Shown in pieces: positions 4,611 through 51,927 of a stretch of DNA of 64,000 nt. Numbering within the stretch: position 1 is the first letter of the stretch; every line of letters begins with the position of its first letter. Position numbers and translations under genes: made by a program. The notes beneath the pieces are model-generated. The model was not told where the DNA came from. It worked only from the letters and a program-made list of their open reading frames with translations, and made no database searches. The stretch is from Thermoplasmata archaeon (GTDB lineage: Archaea > Thermoplasmatota > Thermoplasmata > Lutacidiplasmatales > UBA184). Location: assembly GCA_035499455.1 (NCBI GenBank), contig DATJYS010000007.1:130787-194786 (forward strand). The letters are read 5' to 3'.

Positions 4611-4701
4611 TCGAACTCGCAGGATTCGACCCGGCTCCCCTCACGCGTCACGGATCACGAACCCCCGGGGGCCCTGTGGGCGCGGCGAGTCCATCGTTGA
4701 C

Positions 4702-5679
4702 TCACGGCGTGATGACCACCCGGCCGACGGCGGAACCGCTGTCGACGAAGCGGTGCGCCTCGGGTACGTCCTCCAGGCGATATTGGCGGTCGATCGAGGC
4801 TCGGATCCGACCTGCTTCGATGATCCGGCGAAGGTAATCCAGGTCCGAAGCCCTAGGGGGAGACCCTCGAACCACGACCTTCTTGTCGTCCCTACCGATG
4901 GCCCACGGAGCCCGGAGCCACGCTGCGAGGTGAGGATTCGCGATGAGGTATGAGCCCCCGGCGTTCAACGCTCCCAAGCACGTCGAAAAATCAGCCTGGC
5001 CGACCACGTCGAGGATGACGTCGTAGGCGTTGACGGCCGTGCCGAAGTCTTCCCGGGAGTAGTCGATCACCCGGTCGGCCCCCAGTCGAAGCATCAGGTC
5101 CATCTTCCGGGGGTGATCGACCCCCGTCACATCGGCGCCCAGGAACTTGGCGATCTGGACCGCCAGGGCGCCGATCCCCCCGGCGGCGCCGTTGATCAGG
5201 ATTGTTCGTCCTTCTAGACGCCCGGCCTTCCGGAGAAAGTGCAGTGCCTCTAGGCCCCCGGTGGGGATCGTCGCCGCCTCCTCGAAACTCATGTTGGCCG
5301 GCTTGATCGCCACCGCGCTGTCCCGGGCCGCCTCGTGCACGCAGAGGTACTCGGCATACGCGCCGAAACGGAACCCCGTCGTGCCGTAGACCTCGTCACC
5401 GACCCGGAACCGTGTCGCCCGAGCACCCACGGCCTCCACCACTCCGGCGAACTCCTGACCGAGGATCTTCCGGCGGGGATGGACCGGCCCCATCAACAGA
5501 CGCACCACGAAACGCATGCCGACCCCGAAGCGGAGGGCGCGGAGCTCGCAGTCGCCCGCCGCTACGGCGGTCGCCCGGACCCGAACGAGCAGCTCCTTCG
5601 CCCTGGGAACCGGCTTCGGTACGTCCTGGAGCTGGAGACCTTCCGCCGAGCCGTACGCGGTCCAGACGATCGCTCGCAT
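4702..5679 (-). CDS. zinc-type alcohol dehydrogenase / quinone oxidoreductase (MDR superfamily)
   Basis: Has the GAAGGIG nucleotide-binding motif, a GroES-like N-terminus and VGDEVYG. Confidence 0.7.
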   Translation of the reverse strand: MRAIVWTAYGSAEGLQLQDVPKPVPRAKELLVRVRATAVAAGDCELRALRFGVGMRFVVRLLMGPVHPRRKILGQEFAGVVEAVGARATRFRVGDEVYGTTGFRFGAYAEYLCVHEAARDSAVAIKPANMSFEEAATIPTGGLEALHFLRKAGRLEGRTILINGAAGGIGALAVQIAKFLGADVTGVDHPRKMDLMLRLGADRVIDYSREDFGTAVNAYDVILDVVGQADFSTCLGALNAGGSYLIANPHLAAWLRAPWAIGRDDKKVVVRGSPPRASDLDYLRRIIEAGRIRASIDRQYRLEDVPEAHRFVDSGSAVGRVVITP

Positions 5680-11877: not shown

Positions 11878-13680
11878 ATGACGAACCCCGGTACCGCGCG
11901 CCCCGACCCGCCCGAGGGGGAGGATAGGCGGACCCCCGCGGAGAAGGACGGATATCGGACCACTCCCGACTACCCGACGACCGTCGCGTACCTGGAGCGC
12001 CTGGCGTCGGCCTATCCGGAGTCGGTGCGCATCGAGGACTTCGGCCTGACCGGAGAAGGACGGGAGCTCAAGGTCGTCATCGCCTCGAAGGACGCTCTCT
12101 TCGAGCCCGCGGCCGTCCACGCCGCCGGTCGCGTCGTGCTGCTCGTCCAGAACTCCATCCACGCCGGGGAGATGGACGGAAAGGACGCCTGTCTCGCGCT
12201 CCTACGAGACATCCTCCAGGACCCCGGGCGCGCAACCCTCCTCGACCGCGTCGTCCTCCTCTTCGTTCCGGTCTACAACATCGACGGCCACGAGCGGCGG
12301 TCCGCCTACAACCGCATCAACCAGAACGGCCCCGCGGAGTTCGGATGGCGGGCGAACGGAACGAACCTCAATCTGAATCGGGATTACATGAAGGCGGACG
12401 CGCCCGAGACGCGGGCGTTCCTGCGGCTCGTCCGCCGTTGGGAGCCGGACTTCTTCGTCGATAACCACGTCACGGACGGGGCCGATTTCCAGTACGACGT
12501 CACCTTCGGCATCGACGCGACCCCGGACGTATACCCCGGGACCGCCCGATGGGTCCGCGAGTCGATCACCCCCGAGCTGGTGCGTCGGGTCGATGCGTCC
12601 GGGCACCTCGCCTTCCCCGCGCCGGTGTTCTTGAAGGACGATGCCGACCCGAGCCAGGGGCTCGCCCTCCACGACGACCCTCCCCGGTTCTCGACCGGAT
12701 ACATGATCCTCGAGAACCGGCCGGGGATGCTCGTCGAGCTCCATATGCTGAAGGAGTACCGAACCCGGGTCACCGGAAACTACGAGATCCTTCGGGCCCT
12801 CATGGAACTGTTGAACGATCATGCGGCGACTCTCCTGGGGCTGAACCGCGACGCCGACCGGGCCGCCGAACTCCTCGGGTCGGAGGGAGCCGCCGCGACC
12901 CCGTTCCCGCTCTGCCTGGACCGGAGCGCGGAGAGCGTGGAGGTGCCGTTTCGGGGATACGCGTGGGAGCGGGTGGCCAGTGCGATCTCCGGTGCCACGA
13001 AGATCCGGTACGCGCCCACGCCGTGGAACACGACGCTCCGCATGGACTCGGGCACGCGCGTGGCGCTCTCGGTGAAACCGCCCGCAGGGTACATCATACC
13101 GCCTCAGTGGACGGACGTGATCCGGGTCTTGGAACTCCACGGGGTCACGCTCCGCCTCACCACGGCTGCGTGGACCGGGCCTATCGAGAGCTACGACTGC
13201 TCGGGGATGAAATGGCCGGGTCGCCCGTTCGAGGGCCGGCACCCCATCCTGCGGGCGAGCAACGTCGAGCGAGGGATCGGGGAGTTTGGGACGTGCGTCC
13301 TCACCCGCCGCACGGCGTCCTTTCCGAGGGGATCGGCGGTAGCGCCCCTCGCCCAGAGGCTCTCCAAGGTCGCGATCCACTGGTTGGAGCCCGAGGCTCC
13401 GGACTCTGCCTTGCGATGGGGGTTCTTCGACTCCATCTTCGAGCAGAAGGAGTCCGGCGAGGCGTACGTACTGGAGAAGATCGGTCCCGGGCTCTTGGAG
13501 GGAAACGCCCAGCTCCGGGGGGAGTTTGAACAGCAACTGAGGGCCAGCGCCGAATTCGCCGGCGACCCGGGCGCTCGTCTCGAGTACCTCTATGCCCGAT
13601 CGCGGTGGGGCCGGGCGAACCGGGTCGGAGAATACCCGGTGGGCCGCCTCCCGGCCCTCGACGGTCTGCCCCTGGATTGA
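11878..13680 (+). CDS. M14-family zinc carboxypeptidase-like protein
   Basis: QNSIHAGEMDG (an HxxE zinc motif) and NLNRDY, in a 600-aa non-biased protein. Confidence 0.55.
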   Translation: MTNPGTARPDPPEGEDRRTPAEKDGYRTTPDYPTTVAYLERLASAYPESVRIEDFGLTGEGRELKVVIASKDALFEPAAVHAAGRVVLLVQNSIHAGEMDGKDACLALLRDILQDPGRATLLDRVVLLFVPVYNIDGHERRSAYNRINQNGPAEFGWRANGTNLNLNRDYMKADAPETRAFLRLVRRWEPDFFVDNHVTDGADFQYDVTFGIDATPDVYPGTARWVRESITPELVRRVDASGHLAFPAPVFLKDDADPSQGLALHDDPPRFSTGYMILENRPGMLVELHMLKEYRTRVTGNYEILRALMELLNDHAATLLGLNRDADRAAELLGSEGAAATPFPLCLDRSAESVEVPFRGYAWERVASAISGATKIRYAPTPWNTTLRMDSGTRVALSVKPPAGYIIPPQWTDVIRVLELHGVTLRLTTAAWTGPIESYDCSGMKWPGRPFEGRHPILRASNVERGIGEFGTCVLTRRTASFPRGSAVAPLAQRLSKVAIHWLEPEAPDSALRWGFFDSIFEQKESGEAYVLEKIGPGLLEGNAQLRGEFEQQLRASAEFAGDPGARLEYLYARSRWGRANRVGEYPVGRLPALDGLPLD

Positions 13681-14244: not shown

Positions 14245-14823
14245 ATGGCTGGGAAACGGCGAGCGGCCCCGGTCGTTCCGAAGGGGTTCCGCGTGGTACG
14301 AACGGCATCCCCCGGTCGCCACCCGCTCTTGAAGGTCTTCCCGGGGCTCGACCGTCTCACGGCGTTCCGTCGGTACCCCGTCTCCGAGAAGGCGCGCCGG
14401 AAACTGGCGAGCACCACCGAGGTGGAGATCGTCCCCCGCCCCGGGGAGTTCATGTACGTGGCCCCCCACGCGCTCCCGAAGGACGCGGACCGTCGGTGGA
14501 AGCCGGTCGTGAGCAAGACCGACTGCATCGTCGTGGGAGGAGAGCATCTCCGGCGGAGCCCGGGGATGGTCCTGTTCCTCGACATCATCCACGAGATGGT
14601 GCACCTTCTTCAGCGACACGACGGTCGCGAACTCTGGGACGAGGAGTACTCGTACGTCGACCGGCCGACCGAGCTCGAAGCGTATGCGTTCACGCTGGGG
14701 GAGGCGCGACGGCTCGGAGCGTCACCGGCGTTCCTGCGGGAGTACCTCAAGGTCGAATGGACCACCCCGACGCAGCACCGTCGCCTCGTCCGGAATCTCG
14801 GCGGCTATCTCGGTCGGCCCTGA
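14245..14823 (+). CDS. minimal HExxH...E (gluzincin-like) putative metallopeptidase, paralog A
   Basis: DIIHEMVHLLQ followed by TELEAYAFTLGEARRLG...EYLKVEWTTP..HRRLVRNLG. Clearly paralogous to 49642..50160. Confidence 0.55.
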   Translation: MAGKRRAAPVVPKGFRVVRTASPGRHPLLKVFPGLDRLTAFRRYPVSEKARRKLASTTEVEIVPRPGEFMYVAPHALPKDADRRWKPVVSKTDCIVVGGEHLRRSPGMVLFLDIIHEMVHLLQRHDGRELWDEEYSYVDRPTELEAYAFTLGEARRLGASPAFLREYLKVEWTTPTQHRRLVRNLGGYLGRP

Positions 14824-18924: not shown

Positions 18925-19377
18925 ATGGTCCGACGCATGACGCGCACCTTGCGGCTGCCGATCTTCATTCACGCTTCGCCGAAGCGCGTCTTCAAGTGGA
19001 TCTCGGACGACCGACGGTTGACCCGTTGGCTCTCGGATGCCGCGGCGCTTTCGGCCCGGAAGGGCGGGCGGTATCGGCTCGGGTGGGACGGCGGTCCCAC
19101 CCACACCGGCCGCGTGCTCGCCTTCGCCCGGGGCAAGCAGTTGACGCTGAGCTGGCAATGGCCGGGGAAGGAACACCTGGGTCCGACCAAGCTGAAACTC
19201 GCCGTCGAGCCCGCGGACGGCGGGACGGTGCTGCGGTTCCTCCACTCGGGGTTCGGGACCACCGGGGAGTGGGTCGAGCTCTACGAAGGGGCGATCCGGG
19301 GATGGACGTACTTCATGATGAATCTCAAGTCGGTGCTCGAGAGCGACCGGGACCTGCGCTCGCCGCTCGACTGGTAG
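18925..19377 (+). CDS. SRPBCC-superfamily protein, AHSA1 (Aha1-like) type
   Basis: IHASPKRVFKWISDDRRLTRWLSD...GTVLRFLHSGF matches the AHSA1/SRPBCC pattern. Confidence 0.6.
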   Translation: MVRRMTRTLRLPIFIHASPKRVFKWISDDRRLTRWLSDAAALSARKGGRYRLGWDGGPTHTGRVLAFARGKQLTLSWQWPGKEHLGPTKLKLAVEPADGGTVLRFLHSGFGTTGEWVELYEGAIRGWTYFMMNLKSVLESDRDLRSPLDW

Positions 19378-20345: not shown

Positions 20346-21443
20346 TCAGAGAACGCGGCCCGCCCGCGCGATCGGCTCGCCGTCCACCGAGATCGTCCCG
20401 CCCCCCACCATCGCGAACTGGGTGAACGGGATCGTGGCCTTCCCACCGGCCACGCCGTTCCCCCCGATGCCGACGAGGATCGCTCCCTCTTCGCAATCCT
20501 CGCACGGGGGGAGCTCCCGCGCTTTGGGGTTGAGGCCGATCGACAGGTATCCGATCTTGTCCCGTCCCTTCGGTGCCGCCCGGAACGCCTTCTCGAACTG
20601 CGCCCCACCGACGCCCGTCGAGCGAGACGTGAGGCGACCGCCCTCGAAGGTCCAGCGGCTGTCCGCGAATCTCACGTAGCGGCCCATGTCGTAGACCGGA
20701 CGGTTGCTCACGAGGGTGCCGGACGCGTCGGACCTATCGAGCGGGGCGAAGATCTGGCCCGAGGGGTTCCCCTCGAGCATCCCCCGGGGTCGCAGCCCGG
20801 AGGCTCCTGGGGGGATACCGGAGGCGAGGAGGGGGCGGGTCCCTCGCAACGAGATACGCAGGTCCGTTCCGTTGGCGTGCCGGATCCGCAGCTCCGAACC
20901 GCGGGAGAGCCGGCGAGCGATGCGGTTCCCCTTCAAGCCCATCTTCCGTGCGTCCACCGCCCCGGCCTCGACGAGCCGCGCGCGCCACGCCGGTCCGCGC
21001 ACCCCGAGCCGTCGCGCCGAATCGTCGCTCGCGAGGCCGAGGGACATCCGGTAGCCTCGCAGCTTGCCTTTCCGAGCTGCGGCGTACCACTCGTCGTTGA
21101 AGGCGATGAACTTCGAGACAAAGACCCCGCGGTCGATCGCGCGAACCATCCGCGCGGGACCCCAGAAGTAGAGGTAAGCCGAGGCGTTCTCGACGACCCC
21201 TCTCTCGGCGGCCGAGAGATGCGCGAACGGCCCCGACTGTTGGGCGTCGACCGCGTTCCACCACGCCTCTTCGTCTTCGTACAGCACCGAGGCTTGGGCC
21301 CCGAGGCGTCGGGCCTCTTCGACGAACGCCCGAGTGTAGTCGAGCGTGTGGTTCCACGACTCAATGACCACCGAGTCTCCCTTTCGTATCCGAAGGTTTC
21401 GGTCGAGAATCGCTCGGGCGAGCGACGCGATCGGGGAGGGCAT
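20346..21443 (-). CDS. M29-family aminopeptidase (AmpS/aminopeptidase T-like)
   Basis: LARAILDRNLRIRKGDSVVIESW...LYEDEEAWWNA...MVGGGTISVDGEPI matches the M29 layout. Start taken at MPSPIASLARAIL. The ORF extends to 21527. Confidence 0.6.
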   Translation of the reverse strand: MPSPIASLARAILDRNLRIRKGDSVVIESWNHTLDYTRAFVEEARRLGAQASVLYEDEEAWWNAVDAQQSGPFAHLSAAERGVVENASAYLYFWGPARMVRAIDRGVFVSKFIAFNDEWYAAARKGKLRGYRMSLGLASDDSARRLGVRGPAWRARLVEAGAVDARKMGLKGNRIARRLSRGSELRIRHANGTDLRISLRGTRPLLASGIPPGASGLRPRGMLEGNPSGQIFAPLDRSDASGTLVSNRPVYDMGRYVRFADSRWTFEGGRLTSRSTGVGGAQFEKAFRAAPKGRDKIGYLSIGLNPKARELPPCEDCEEGAILVGIGGNGVAGGKATIPFTQFAMVGGGTISVDGEPIARAGRVL

Positions 21444-22548
21444 CGCCCTCCGAAGTACCCCGGGTATATACGGGGTGGTCCGAGGAACCGGCGCGGGTAG
21501 CTCCCCGGGCCTGCACGAGCGGTCCAAGCGTTCGATCGATCTGCCCCAGCCCCGCCCTCATCCGGTCGAGATCGAGCCCGATGTAGTGGACCGACATGTC
21601 CAGGTTCGCGTGGCCGAAGAGGTTCTTCAGCTGGATCAGGTCCATCCCCGAGGCATGGGCCACCCGGCCGAACGTGCGCCGGAGATCGTGATGCGAGACC
21701 CGGACCCCTCGTCGATCGAACCCGGCCGCCCGGGCGGCCTTCGCCAGCTGCTGGTCGGCCCACGACGCCGAGAAGGGGAGGACCCGACTATCGGCCGGCA
21801 CGCCCGATAGCCGACCTACGAGCTCCCGGCGCGCGATGCCGCTCAGCGGGATCTGCCGCCACTTTCCTCCGAGCCTCCCCTTCCCTCGCACGTTGAGCCA
21901 CCCTTCGTCGAGATTCACGTCGCCCGCCCGGAGTCGCAGGACCTCCACCCGGCGAAGACCATTGAATCCCTCCAGAGCGACGATGAGCCGCGCGGGACCG
22001 GAGGCACGTCGGAGCAGGGTCGCCAACTCCTCTGGCGCGATCCACCGGCGACGGGACGGGCCGCCGGCCGGGAGGCGCCAGACCTCGGGGGAGTCGGCGA
22101 CCGGGTTTCCGCTCCATCGAAGGAACTGTCGGAGGGCGGCGAAGTAGAACTGCGTCGTCGCCCGCGCCCAGTTCTTCTGGGTTCTCAGCGCGCCGACATG
22201 GCTCTCCGTCACGTCCGCCGCGCAGGTGACGGGGGGCGTCCCCCCCAGCTGGCGAAGCAAGGGCGGGATCCGGGCCAGGGTGTAGCGGATGCCCCGCTGC
22301 CAGCGCTCGCCGATCGACCTCCGCCGTGTCCACACCTCGAGAAAGGAGGTGACCTCGTCCCTCCAGTCCGTCCCCGGAGGCGGGAGCGCGTCATCGCGAC
22401 GGGCGCCGCGCGGAGCACTCCCCGGCCGCGCGGCCGGGGATCTCCGCACCGGCGCATACTCCCCTAGGGTCCGCTGAACGCCGCGGGGTTGCGCGGCGAT
22501 ATCGCACGATCGTCGATCTCCCACCGCCGAGGAAGGCGGAGTTCGCAC
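21361..22548 (-). CDS. tyrosine site-specific recombinase (XerA/XerC/D-like integrase)
   Basis: C-terminal catalytic region HHDLRRTFGRVAHASGMDLIQLKNLFGHANLDMSVHYI (H-x-x-R ... H ... Y). The N-terminal core-binding region is TSFLEVWTRRRSIGERWQRGIRYTLARI. The first ~60 aa of the ORF are low-complexity, so the true start is probably internal. The 3' tail overlaps the aminopeptidase start. Confidence 0.7.
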   Translation of the reverse strand: MRTPPSSAVGDRRSCDIAAQPRGVQRTLGEYAPVRRSPAARPGSAPRGARRDDALPPPGTDWRDEVTSFLEVWTRRRSIGERWQRGIRYTLARIPPLLRQLGGTPPVTCAADVTESHVGALRTQKNWARATTQFYFAALRQFLRWSGNPVADSPEVWRLPAGGPSRRRWIAPEELATLLRRASGPARLIVALEGFNGLRRVEVLRLRAGDVNLDEGWLNVRGKGRLGGKWRQIPLSGIARRELVGRLSGVPADSRVLPFSASWADQQLAKAARAAGFDRRGVRVSHHDLRRTFGRVAHASGMDLIQLKNLFGHANLDMSVHYIGLDLDRMRAGLGQIDRTLGPLVQARGATRAGSSDHPVYTRGTSEGDALPDRVARPSDSRPKPSDTKGRLGGH

Positions 22549-45021: not shown

Positions 45022-47049
45022 TCACCAAATGACGACCTGGCGGCTCGGCGGCTGACGCATCGGCGCGCCGACCGGCACGTCGAACGCCTTCCAGAACTCC
45101 GGCAGGTTCGCGAGCGTCCCGTTGACGCGGAAGTTGCCGGGGGAGTGCGGGTCGATGGAGACCCGGCGCCGCGTCTCCGCCTCCCGCATCGACCCCCGCC
45201 AGATCTGGCCGTAGGAGAGGAAGAACCGCTGTTCGGGGGTGAACCCGTCGATCGTCCGGTTCGGCGTCCGGCCGTCCGCGAGCCGGTGCGCGAGGGCCTC
45301 GTACGCGAGGCTCACCCCGCCGAGGTCGGCGATGTTCTCCCCGGCCGTGAGGGCTCCGTTGAGCGCGAGGCCGGGCAACGGACGGAACCGCGAGTACTCC
45401 CGCACGATGCGGTTCGCCCGCGCGCGGAACTCGCGGGCATCCTTCGGGGTCCACCAGTCCCGGAGGTTCCCGTCCGGATCGAACTTCCGCCCTTGGTCGT
45501 CGTAGCCGTGGGTGATCTCGTGCCCGATGACCGCCGCGATCCCCCCGAAGTTGACGGGGTCGTCCATCGTCGGGTCGAAGAACGGCGGCTGGAGGATCCC
45601 CGCGGGAAAGAAGATCTGGTTCTGCGTCGGCACGAAGTGCGCGTTGACGGTCGGTGGGGTCATGTGCCACTCTTCCCGGTCGACGGCGGCACCGATGCGG
45701 GCCACGTTCCGGTCGATCTCGAACGCCCAGGCCCGGTGCAGGTTGCCGAGGGGGTCCCGGGCGGAGAGGCGGATCCGGCCGTAGTCGCGGTACTTCTCCG
45801 GGTGCCCGATCCGGGTCGTGAACCGGTCGAACTTGGCGACGGCGCGCTCGCGCGTCTTCGGGGTCATCCAGGGGATCCGTTCGAGCCGGGCCCGGAACAC
45901 CTCATGGATGTCGTGGACCAGCTCGAGCATCCGCGTTCGAACCTCCGGCGGGAAGTGGCGTTCGACGTAGAGGCGACCCAGCGCCTCGCCGAGGGCGGCG
46001 TCGACCAGGGCCGTCGCCCGCTTCCAGGGGGGCTCCGGCTTCTCCTGTCCGAGGAGGCGACGATGGAAGAACTCGAAATCCTCCCGTTCGAACCGGGCCG
46101 CGAGGAGGGGGGCGCTGTCGTGCAGGAGCTGCCAGCTCAGGTACGCCCTCCAGTGCGCCGGCGGGATCGACGCGAGGAGGCCGTCCAGGGAATCGAAGAA
46201 CTCGGGCTGCCCGACGATCACGTAGGGGATCTCTCGGACGCCCCGCAGGCGTAGGTACTCCCTCCACCGGAGCCGGGGAAAGCGTCGGTCGAGTTCCCGG
46301 AGCGAGAACCGATGGTAGTTCTTGTCGGGGTCGCGCAGGTCGACGCGGCTGCGGCTCGCCTTCGCGAGGGCGGTCTCGATCGCGAGGACGACCCGCGCCG
46401 CTTCGCGGGCCTCCGCCGGACGGTCCCCGGCCAGCACGCGAAGTGCCCGGAGGTGGCGGAGGTAGTGGGTCCGAAGGGGGGCGAAGCGGTCGAGAAGATA
46501 GTAGTCCCGATCCGGGAGGGAGATGCCGTCCTGCCCTAGATACAGGGCGTACACGGAACTGCGACGTTCGTCGGGGGCGACCGCCGTGGAGAACGCCCCC
46601 GGGATCCCCTTGCGGTGCAGCGCCGCCAGAACGGGGACGATCCCGCCGGCGGTTCGGATCGCCTCGATCCGCCTCAGATCGGTCGCGATCGGGCGCAACC
46701 CCTCCCGCTGCCGCGCCCGGGCGTCCAGAGCCGCGGCGTAGAACGTGCCGACCTGGCGGCTCGCCGGGTCGGAGGAGCTCCCGCGGGTCCGCGCCGCCTC
46801 GTCGAGGATCTCCCGCAGCAGGGCGAAGTTCCGTTCGCGCAGCTCATCAAAGCCGCTCCACCGCGTCTTGTCGGCCGGGATCGGGTGGGCGTCGACCCAG
46901 CCGCCGGCCGCGTATCGGAAGAAGTCGCGGGTCGGGTCGGCCTTCGGATCGATATGACGGATCGAGAATCGGACCGGTTCCCTTGGGGCACCGCGGGGCG
47001 CCGGACGCCGGGAGGCTCTCGGGCCCCTCTTCGTTCCGACCGCGCCCAT
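45022..47049 (-). CDS. M13-family zinc metalloendopeptidase (neprilysin/PepO-like)
   Basis: VIGHEITHGYDD (HExxH) and ENIADLGG (M13 EN-x-AD-x-GG motif). 675 aa. Confidence 0.85.
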   Translation of the reverse strand: MGAVGTKRGPRASRRPAPRGAPREPVRFSIRHIDPKADPTRDFFRYAAGGWVDAHPIPADKTRWSGFDELRERNFALLREILDEAARTRGSSSDPASRQVGTFYAAALDARARQREGLRPIATDLRRIEAIRTAGGIVPVLAALHRKGIPGAFSTAVAPDERRSSVYALYLGQDGISLPDRDYYLLDRFAPLRTHYLRHLRALRVLAGDRPAEAREAARVVLAIETALAKASRSRVDLRDPDKNYHRFSLRELDRRFPRLRWREYLRLRGVREIPYVIVGQPEFFDSLDGLLASIPPAHWRAYLSWQLLHDSAPLLAARFEREDFEFFHRRLLGQEKPEPPWKRATALVDAALGEALGRLYVERHFPPEVRTRMLELVHDIHEVFRARLERIPWMTPKTRERAVAKFDRFTTRIGHPEKYRDYGRIRLSARDPLGNLHRAWAFEIDRNVARIGAAVDREEWHMTPPTVNAHFVPTQNQIFFPAGILQPPFFDPTMDDPVNFGGIAAVIGHEITHGYDDQGRKFDPDGNLRDWWTPKDAREFRARANRIVREYSRFRPLPGLALNGALTAGENIADLGGVSLAYEALAHRLADGRTPNRTIDGFTPEQRFFLSYGQIWRGSMREAETRRRVSIDPHSPGNFRVNGTLANLPEFWKAFDVPVGAPMRQPPSRQVVIW

Positions 47050-49641: not shown

Positions 49642-50160
49642 TCACTTCGACGCGCGTCGCCGCCGCTTCGGAAGCACTCCGAGCCGACGCGCCAGCCGAC
49701 GATGGTCGGCCGCCTCGACCCACTCGACCTTGAGGTACTCGACGAGCTCGGGGTCGGTCATGCCGATCCGTCGGCCTTCCTTGACCGTGAACGCGTACGC
49801 CTCGATCTCGGTCGGGACGTCGACGTACTTGCGCTTCCGGTCGAACAGCGGACGGCCGGCGCGGAACTGCTTGACGTGGCAGAGTTCGTGGACGACGTCG
49901 AGGTAGACCGTCCGGAGGTCGCTGGTCTTGAGGTGGTGGCTGCTGACGATCAGGTGGCCGTCGACGTCGCTCGTCCCCATGTAGCCGAACGGCGGTGAGA
50001 AGAATTCGACCTTCAGGTTCCGCAGGATCGTCGCGGCCTTCGCGCCGAACAGCTCCCGCACCGGGGGCGCCCGGTCGAACCCCCGGAAGAACCGGGAGAA
50101 CGGGTAGAGCCGGATCGGGGCGACGCGCTGGATCCGAACTCCCTGGTACGTCTCGATCAT
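49642..50160 (-). CDS. minimal HExxH...E putative metallopeptidase, paralog B
   Basis: DVVHELCHVKQ, then TEIEAYAFTVKEGRRIG...EYLKVEWVEA..HRRLARRLG. Paralog of 14245..14823. Confidence 0.55.
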   Translation of the reverse strand: MIETYQGVRIQRVAPIRLYPFSRFFRGFDRAPPVRELFGAKAATILRNLKVEFFSPPFGYMGTSDVDGHLIVSSHHLKTSDLRTVYLDVVHELCHVKQFRAGRPLFDRKRKYVDVPTEIEAYAFTVKEGRRIGMTDPELVEYLKVEWVEAADHRRLARRLGVLPKRRRRASK

Positions 50161-50411: not shown

Positions 50412-51023
50412 ATGGCGAAGAAATGGCTGATAGGAATGGTCGCGGCGATCTCGGTCGTGTGCATGGCCGGCGTCGGGTTCTCGGCGTTCACCGCCCTGGC
50501 CCAGGTCAACGGCAACGCCACGGCGGCGACGATGGGGCTCGAGATCGTCCAGAACTTCACGACGGGCTGCTACTACAACCTGAACGTCGCGGGTGCGCCC
50601 GGTAACTACTCGTTCTCGAACGAGAACGCCGCCCAGACGTCGATCTCGCTGGTCGCGTCGAACCTGACTCCCGGCATCAACTGCCGGGCGTACCTGGAGC
50701 TCGAGAACACGGGTTCCGTCCCCGTGAACGTGAGCGTCGCCCTCGACACCGCTGGGGCGGACGGGATCTGCACGGCGTGGGCCCTCGACTGCTTTGACGT
50801 CTATACGCTGTCGGGCATCGAGGCGTCCGGGTGGCTGTACTGGAGCGGATCGCCGACGGCCGGCACCTCGAGCGATGCGTACTCCAACTGGGCTACGCTC
50901 GCCCCGGGCGCCATGGTCTGGGACGTCGTCCTGGTCGACATTCCGTTCGGGTCGGACAACGGGACCCCCTCCTCCGGGGCGTTCTCGCTCGTCTATACGG
51001 CGGCGCCCGAGTACGGCTACTAG
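50412..51023 (+). CDS. secreted TasA/camelysin-like protein (SipW-cognate-type signal peptide)
   Basis: The N-terminus MAKKWLIGMVAAISVVCMAGVGFSAFTA resembles the K-rich plus GxGxF[AS][YA]F[ST] signal of the TasA family. The mature part is a beta-rich domain with LELENTGSVPVNVSV. Confidence 0.4.
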   Translation: MAKKWLIGMVAAISVVCMAGVGFSAFTALAQVNGNATAATMGLEIVQNFTTGCYYNLNVAGAPGNYSFSNENAAQTSISLVASNLTPGINCRAYLELENTGSVPVNVSVALDTAGADGICTAWALDCFDVYTLSGIEASGWLYWSGSPTAGTSSDAYSNWATLAPGAMVWDVVLVDIPFGSDNGTPSSGAFSLVYTAAPEYGY

Positions 51024-51397: not shown

Positions 51398-51486
51398 GGT
51401 CGCCCTCGTCGCGACGGGGCTGCCCCCTATCACTCCTCCCGTTCGCCGGAGCCAACCTTATGCGGGGCGGTCGGGCTCGCGGAGGC

Positions 51487-51927
51487 ATGGTCCGCTACAC
51501 CGACGACACGACCGTCCCCGTACCCCGCGAACGGCTGTGGCGCCTCTTGGACCTGCACTCCCAGGATGCGGTGATCCCCCGCATCCATCCGGAGGTCGTC
51601 TCCCAGGAGACGGTGAGCCAGAAGCCCGGCGAGTACGTCGTGAAGCGCGGAGTGAAGGTGATCCGCAAGGTCGCGACCGCGAACTGGAAGGTGACGTACC
51701 AGGCGCCGGACCGGTTCCGGTGGGAGATCCTCGACGGGAATGGGCCGTGGAGCGCCGGAAGCTACCTCTCGGTCGCGTACTCGGACGTCCCGGGCGGAAC
51801 TCGGATGGTCAGCGAAGGTGAGCTGACCGTCGTCGGTCTCCCCGGATTCCTTCAGAACCGGATCGTGCGCTCGGCGCTGGCTCGGGTCCACGACGAGGAC
51901 GCCGAGTACCTTTCCCAGAACCCGTGA
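51487..51927 (+). CDS. SRPBCC-superfamily (polyketide cyclase/dehydrase-like) protein
   Basis: MVRYTDDTTVPVPRERLWRLLDLHSQDAVIPRIHPEVV is a typical SRPBCC N-terminus. Confidence 0.55.
   Translation: MVRYTDDTTVPVPRERLWRLLDLHSQDAVIPRIHPEVVSQETVSQKPGEYVVKRGVKVIRKVATANWKVTYQAPDRFRWEILDGNGPWSAGSYLSVAYSDVPGGTRMVSEGELTVVGLPGFLQNRIVRSALARVHDEDAEYLSQNP

Follow-up and report, generated by a model that had tools for sequence, protein, structure and literature searches.

Which family do two short archaeal genes for hypothetical proteins with a HExxH motif belong to, and what might their products do? The question is raised by a stretch of 64,000 nucleotides from a Thermoplasmata archaeon (assembly GCA_035499455.1, contig DATJYS010000007.1, positions 130,787 to 194,786), which was analysed as a whole and is called the window below. 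It has a guanine-plus-cytosine (GC) content of 69% and contains both open reading frames (ORFs), referred to here as paralogue A and paralogue B (Table 1). The best explanation, to which a probability of about 0.72 is given, is that A and B encode paralogous, soluble, cytoplasmic, single-domain proteins, predicted to be Zn-dependent metallopeptidases of the gluzincin type, and that they belong to an undescribed, mostly archaeal family.

Two paralogous genes

An initial annotation, made from the letters of the window without database searches, had described A and B as paralogous genes for minimal metalloprotease-like proteins with a colinear core. Both ORFs exist exactly as it gave them. Their products align over 174 columns with 36% identity in BLASTP (E=1e-30), a resemblance far above chance, and the two genes are therefore paralogues. 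A carries an insertion of about 20 residues relative to B in the N-terminal beta region, and B ends in a basic C-terminal tail (LPKRRRRASK). A tblastn search of the window yielded no third copy. Both products have been deposited as hypothetical proteins from a Thermoplasmata metagenome-assembled genome (MAG), on a 496-kb contig.

A and B are real genes under purifying selection, because synonymous codon changes far exceed non-synonymous ones (60 against 18) between B and its 92% identical orthologue at locus L011, and the differences lie mostly at third codon positions (19, 12 and 69 at positions 1, 2 and 3). No hydrophobic segment of the transmembrane (TM) or signal type occurs in either protein (maximum KD19 of 1.03 in A and 0.67 in B). 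The regions upstream of both genes contain nothing notable.

Catalytic motifs and predicted fold

A and B have a common signature, D-x2-HExxH-x2-Q followed by T-E-x-E-A-Y, and 23 residues separate the second histidine from the first glutamate of TExEAY in both proteins, so the spacing of about 25 residues initially proposed was approximately right. Further downstream, both contain EYLKVEW and HRRL.R.LG, and all the colinear motifs quoted in the initial annotation are thus present in each. Nine residues are invariant across the family in a 48-sequence alignment, namely D88, H91, E92, H95, Q98, Y112, E118, E120 and A121 (B numbering). Of the 150 family representatives listed, most also show HExxH and ExEA[YF] at a regular spacing from each other.

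An AlphaFold2 model of B, built on a 39-sequence family alignment, reached a predicted local distance difference test score (pLDDT) of 94.6 and a predicted template modelling score (pTM) of 0.89. From the N-terminus, the model consists of strands, a backing helix (residues 32-48), a small sheet, the HExxH helix (82-100), a further helix (116-131) and two short C-terminal helices. It has the N-terminal mixed beta-sheet with backing helix and the helical lower part that characterize the zincin fold. The HExxH motif (HEMVH in A, HELCH in B) lies on the active-site helix; E118 and E120, both invariant, stand at the start of the downstream helix. Eight of the nine nearest structural neighbours of the model have a zincin fold, and most of these are peptidases. 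A search of all PDB chains with the family profile gave chance-level matches only (WNK1 and SPACA9, E>0.4). Metzincins or aspzincins would show a different arrangement. Because the modelled active-site helix is long and unbroken and the glutamate motif is invariant, the model identifies the predicted fold class of B as gluzincin, in MEROPS clan MA(E). The earlier description of a gluzincin-like HExxH+E arrangement in a minimal zincin agrees with the motif invariance in 48 members and with this model.

Metal binding, peptidase chemistry and the assignment of ligands are predicted properties of A and B. H91, H95 and E118 of B (H116, H120 and E143 of A) would bind one Zn2+, with E118 and E143 as the putative third ligands, and E92 (E117 in A) would act as the general base, activating the water bound to the zinc. 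The invariant D88, Q98, Y112 and E120, together with Y122, would shape the site, and Y112 or Y122 probably stabilises the tetrahedral intermediate. In the manner of other zincins, the substrate would join the N-terminal beta-sheet as one more strand. Most likely, the enzymes would cut peptides or exposed stretches of unfolded protein.

Size and distribution of the family

In a set of 5.8 billion proteins, 1231 homologues were found for B and 174 for A. Nearly all of them are annotated as hypothetical, and no precomputed Pfam domain is recorded for any. An exhaustive search of 1.84 billion representatives at 50% identity with the family profile gave only 272 family clusters (E up to 1e-3), which makes the family small and compact. 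With one genome per GTDB species, at least 582 loci encode a relative. GTDB taxonomy and neighbour counts given here cover the best 80 of these loci, 52 from Thermoplasmata and 28 from other lineages. All 80 come from archaeal MAGs, assigned to Thermoplasmata, Bathyarchaeia, Nitrososphaeria or Methanobacteriota, with a few labelled just 'archaeon'. One distant cluster (P0313, MBZ5637949.1) has a bacterial MAG (Acidobacteriia/Terriglobia) as its source. Barring a binning error for that contig, the family thus extends beyond the archaea. A literature search found no description of the family.

B is 46-56% identical to members from Bathyarchaeia and Nitrososphaeria. Among 104 family clusters compared with both proteins, 82 are closer to B and 22 to A, and all 174 homologues of A come from MAGs of Thermoplasmata or Euryarchaeota. 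Judged by these similarities, B is the canonical family type and A represents a divergent subfamily, so far confined to MAGs of these two groups. Genes of both types share contigs in several MAGs, for instance ACLQD8_00195 with ACLQD8_00505, or P0003 with P0125, for which the longest contigs are equal in length (398,195 bp). B would be the ancestral orthologue common to other archaea, and A an older duplicate that has since diverged.

Subfamily-B proteins end in a conserved, Arg/Lys-rich basic tail with a median length of 16 residues and a median net charge of +8. The remainder of the family is acidic (median isoelectric point, pI, of 5.8) and has no such tail, so the basic character is lineage-specific.

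Genomic context and GNAT associations

All-against-all clustering of flanking ORFs at the 52 Thermoplasmata loci revealed no conserved neighbour of B-type genes. The recurrent flanking 'clusters' at these loci proved to be shadow ORFs overlapping the family gene itself, and the annotated contexts of B orthologues differ among themselves. In Thermoplasmata, A and B would be stand-alone, housekeeping-type genes with no fixed partner. The order S58 peptidase, A, major facilitator superfamily (MFS) transporter recurs in three lineages; it was rejected as a functional operon, as neither the window nor two other lineages have it.

Two associations with GNAT acetyltransferases were found in other archaea. 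The first is a gene fusion. GNAT precedes the zincin domain in eight of the ten longer representatives scanned, and a search with one fusion protein (P0267) gave 34 full-length fusion clusters, all annotated as GNAT only. Those bearing organism names are all from Nitrososphaerota (Conexivisphaerales or Nitrososphaerales). The AlphaFold2 model of the fusion (pLDDT 89.5, pTM 0.85) comprises a tandem GNAT (residues 1-244) joined to the zincin domain by a flexible linker. In structure the GNAT half is like generic tandem GNATs, and its sequence weakly matches YpeA, RimI and Naa-type N-acetyltransferases.

The second association is one of gene order and belongs to one Bathyarchaeia clade. At 17 of the 28 non-Thermoplasmata loci, mostly from Bathyarchaeia, a divergent gene for a 283-residue GNAT (Acetyltransf_1 + Acetyltransf_18) lies about 126 bp upstream of the family gene, which stands alone at the remaining 11. 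Beyond the GNAT gene, the Bathyarchaeia block contains a gene for a 456-residue protein without a Pfam match and then one for a 203-residue metallo-beta-lactamase (MBL)-fold hydrolase. The neighbouring GNAT was rejected as an orthologue of the fused one (E=0.034). In five Bathyarchaeia loci, a HycI-like protease is encoded downstream of the family gene.

No GNAT partner is encoded in the window. The two independent associations are suggestive, and they are treated here as a lead and not as a function of A and B, because GNAT genes are numerous in general and Thermoplasmata lack the link. The associations hint weakly at a connection with protein or peptide acetylation, e.g., N-terminal processing or the removal of acylated peptides.

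Relatives in phages

A scan of IMG/VR brought up many small proteins (118-175 residues) from low-GC phage genomes with the pattern HE[LM]VHV[KR]QY...D[KRS]PSEIEAY, which matches HELxHVxQ...DxPTEIEAY of the archaeal family. They belong to PHROG 10499 and 16532, both of which carry no function in their annotation. Over the catalytic core, hhalign aligned them with the archaeal family at a probability of 98.6% (E=1.4e-15). Such a profile match marks them as true remote homologues over this core, and they would form an unannotated zincin family of phages. 'Hypothetical proteins' of cultured phages are among them, namely those of Stenotrophomonas phage DLP_6, Roseobacter phage CRP-9, Methylophilales phage Melnitz and Synechococcus phage S-SRM01. 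The phage proteins differ from the archaeal ones in their N-terminal half, they are without the C-terminal EYLKVEW...HRRL region, and their hosts are bacteria. They are no closer to the M78 peptidases than the archaeal family is. B itself found no match in the phage collection by tblastn. A full-length family member is encoded on one viral-flagged contig (L091), which may stem from a virus or provirus with a high-GC archaeal host, or may be misclassified.

Named families and alternative explanations

As the initial annotation had left them, A and B fall in no named family. A had no Pfam match, and the best Pfam match of B was Peptidase_M78 with 12.9 bits, under the cutoff of 22. Neither protein matched NCBIfam, and nothing in PHROGs exceeded the threshold. 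The anti-phage defence models of PADLOC gave no match for A, B, the subfamily-A relative P0144 or the fusion P0267, and a chance-level one for P0244 (E=0.034). Nearly all sub-threshold Pfam matches of 39 family members were to zincin families (M78 in 15, with a best E of 4e-4; DUF3920 in eight; PhageMetallopep in five). The two outcomes that the initial annotation had named as adverse, a failure of mutual alignment or a match to a non-protease family, did not occur. Anti-repressor, non-peptidase and Spartan-like roles are conceivable, each with less support than the reading of A and B as zincin peptidases.

The M78 matches raise the possibility that A and B are anti-repressor proteases of the ImmA/IrrE type (MEROPS M78, PF06114, COG2856), which would cleave a cognate Xre repressor upon a signal (cf. 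ImmA/ImmR and IrrE/DdrO), perhaps within an integrated element. Proteins of this type resemble the archaeal family in being small soluble gluzincins with a HExxH active-site helix and a next helix containing E-x-[EQ]-A-[ND]; the ExxAD motif of M48 peptidases also parallels the family's E-x-E-A-Y. M78 is the nearest Pfam family by the counts given above, and P0144 carries the NCBI name 'ImmA/IrrE family metallo-endopeptidase'. Moreover, an integrated element may be indicated by a phage-integrase-family gene situated about 6.5 kb downstream of A, and in some subfamily-A contexts a gene for a helix-turn-helix (HTH) protein, of the HTH_3-CBS type, lies one to three genes away.

The reference for comparison was orf122, a 'metallo-protease' of Streptococcus phage Sfi21 that scores 52 bits against M78 and adjoins an HTH repressor gene. 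Together with four homologues it made up the M78 profile (A5). In hhalign, the family profile was colinear with A5 across 80 columns that span both catalytic motifs, at a probability of 19% (E=1.2e-3); with a single M78 sequence, the probability was 3.7%. HELGH of M78 pairs with HELVH, and E72-x-[EQ]-A75-[ND]-R with E118-I-E120-A121-Y122, which places E118 of B on the invariant glutamate of the M78 E-x-x-A motif. The alignment supports a remote kinship within the superfamily and points to E118 as the probable third ligand, short of establishing membership in M78.

All M78 scores stay under the curated cutoff, and the two groups differ in several features. The spacing from the second histidine to the glutamate is 16 residues in the M78 set and 23 in the archaeal family, and the alanine is followed by Asn or Asp in the former and by Tyr in the latter. 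Unlike M78, the archaeal family has an additional N-terminal beta segment, in which R12, F25 and G27 do not vary. Furthermore, the functional hallmark of COG2856 is an Xre-type HTH partner or fusion (PMC2701414). All five phage genes of A5 adjoin an annotated repressor or DNA-binding gene, whereas the archaeal family is without such a partner: no gene directly adjoining a family gene encodes an HTH in the Pfam-annotated contexts, and the Thermoplasmata loci have no conserved neighbour. An anti-repressor role is thus quite improbable.

A second alternative is that the zincin fold serves a purpose other than peptide cleavage. The proteins could be amidases or deacylases acting on a GNAT-linked N-acyl small molecule, N-acetylated amino acid or peptide, metal-dependent nucleases like YbeY, or latent scaffolds. 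The GNAT fusion and GNAT neighbourhood in two lineages and the MBL-fold hydrolase of the Bathyarchaeia block would suit such roles. The YbeY site, H-x3-H-x5-H, has no catalytic glutamate, and the complete HExxH+E set is invariant in the archaeal family, contrary to what is expected of a non-catalytic scaffold. The predominance of peptidases among the nearest structural neighbours and the missing GNAT link in Thermoplasmata also speak against a non-peptidase role, which is very doubtful. The lack of detectable activity in the mini-Glu-zincin proabylysin counts in its favour (PMC3890501). Minigluzincins (selecase, proabylysin and projannalysin; provisional MEROPS M95) are nevertheless distinct from the archaeal family, with about 100 residues against 160-190. 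No sequence similarity and no close structural similarity to the solved minigluzincins was found, and neither they nor the M48/M56 catalytic domains that they resemble (BepA, HtpX, BlaR1) have detectable sequence similarity to the archaeal proteins, whose HExxHxxQ...TExEAY signature sets them apart.

The third zinc ligand of SprT/Wss1 proteins is a histidine. A role as archaeal analogues of the DNA-protein-crosslink proteases SprT, Spartan and Wss1, in which nucleic-acid binding by a basic surface and tail would guide the zincin to proteins attached to DNA or RNA, would fit the high pI of A and B and the tail of subfamily B, but it is very improbable indeed, as the basicity is lineage-specific within a mostly acidic family, arginine richness is expected at the GC content of the window, the family has an invariant glutamate motif in place of the histidine, no recognisable DNA-binding domain is present (a difference from ArdC as well), and no association with repair genes is conserved. 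The resemblance to SprT- and WLM-type proteins suggested in the initial annotation holds at the level of the fold and goes no further, since no SprT-like Pfam model (PF10263, WLM) matches A or B and an SprT-type zinc site was not found.

The reading preferred here, that A and B are gluzincin peptidases of a family of their own, has to be weighed against some points as well. Motif analogy and helix positions are the sole basis for the ligand geometry and for preferring E118 to E120. The GNAT link does not extend to Thermoplasmata, with no partner in the window and no conserved neighbour at the 52 loci. The two GNATs are non-orthologous and GNATs are very common, so the acetylation link may not apply to A and B.

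A more far-reaching reading is also conceivable. The proteins would constitute a new MEROPS-level, mainly archaeal family that was ancestrally coupled to GNAT acetylation, as an N-terminus-processing peptidase or an N-acylated-peptide hydrolase. In Thermoplasmata the gene would have been duplicated and its products become basic, with a tail gained by subfamily B, and one or both copies would thereby be redirected to substrates bound to nucleic acids or ribosomes, and the phage homologues would manipulate the same host process. As a whole, this scenario is rather unlikely.

Significance

The fold and chemistry belong to a very well-known superfamily; the family is distinct and unnamed within it and is not a new kind of biology. 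If the prediction is true, it would describe a compact family of zinc peptidases of about 170 residues, confidently modelled and present in hundreds of uncultured archaeal species (Thermoplasmata, Bathyarchaeia and Nitrososphaeria), which is missing from Pfam, NCBIfam, the PDB and the literature searched. Once defined, the family would take the place of an often repeated 'hypothetical protein' in archaeal annotation and would be a candidate for inclusion in MEROPS. Moreover, the family would offer a tractable minimal scaffold for studies of gluzincin catalysis, and the GNAT fusions would be a concrete lead to a protease-acetyltransferase partnership in archaea.

Neighbouring genes in the window

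The positions of the paralogues, their motifs, neighbouring genes and relatives in other genomes are collected in Table 1. The membrane proteins mentioned in the initial annotation are indeed encoded beside the two genes. A is followed by a gene for a 331-residue protein with four TM segments and two C-terminal SHOCT motifs. The gene convergent with B encodes a 342-residue protein with at least eight hydrophobic TM segments (nine in the initial annotation). Neither is a conserved partner.

Table 1 Location of the two paralogues, their predicted catalytic motifs, nearby genes and relatives elsewhere (positions refer to the window unless a locus is named)
Feature	Position	Strand	Remarks
Paralogue A	14245..14823	+	ORF, 192 aa, pI 10.2; 100% identical to P0121/VML94_08210
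Paralogue B	49642..50160	-	ORF, 172 aa, pI 10.2; 100% identical to P0001/VML94_08420
Active-site helix motif of A, DIIHEMVHLLQ (residues 113-123)	14581..14613	+	D, H, E, H and Q invariant (39- and 48-sequence alignments)
Glutamate-helix motif of A, TELEAY (residues 142-147)	14668..14685	+	E, E and A invariant; aligned by hhalign to M78 E-x-[EQ]-A-[ND]-R
Active-site helix motif of B, DVVHELCHVKQ (residues 88-98)	49867..49899	-	Inside model helix 82-100
Glutamate-helix motif of B, TEIEAY (residues 117-122)	49795..49812	-	Start of model helix 116-131
M14 carboxypeptidase gene	11878-13680	+	Upstream of A; large metallopeptidase gene
Phage_integrase-family gene	~21361-22449 (= L002 15117-16205)	-	~6.5 kb downstream of A; adjoins two genes without Pfam match
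M13 PepO-like endopeptidase gene	~45022-47049	-	~2.6 kb from B
Gene for 203-aa protein	50412-51023	+	Divergently upstream of B; N-terminal hydrophobic signal or anchor (MAKKWLIGMVAAISVVCMAGVGFSAFTA...), no Pfam match
Small SRPBCC-type proteins (Polyketide_cyc2 / AHSA1)	~51460-51927, ~18925-19377	both +	A few kb from each paralogue
Bathyarchaeia divergent upstream block	Loci L069-L090, e.g., L089 901-3736		14-17 species
Family member on viral-flagged contig	L091 (IMGVR_UViG_3300009091_000064) 4647-5375		242 aa, full member, HELTH...PTEIEAF; contig of 64% GC
Phage homologues	Loci L092-L110		Records KU682439.2, MW514246.1, MZ577095-8, MW015081.1

The window contains no tRNA genes and no Rfam matches. 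The large metallopeptidase genes near A and B, like the S58 (DmpA-type) peptidase genes beside A-type genes elsewhere, fit a peptide-degrading lifestyle; their linkage is not conserved. The proximity of SRPBCC-type genes to both paralogues could be coincidence and is not conserved in the other contexts examined. In one distant relative (P0286), the zincin domain is fused to AHSA1 and DUF3471.
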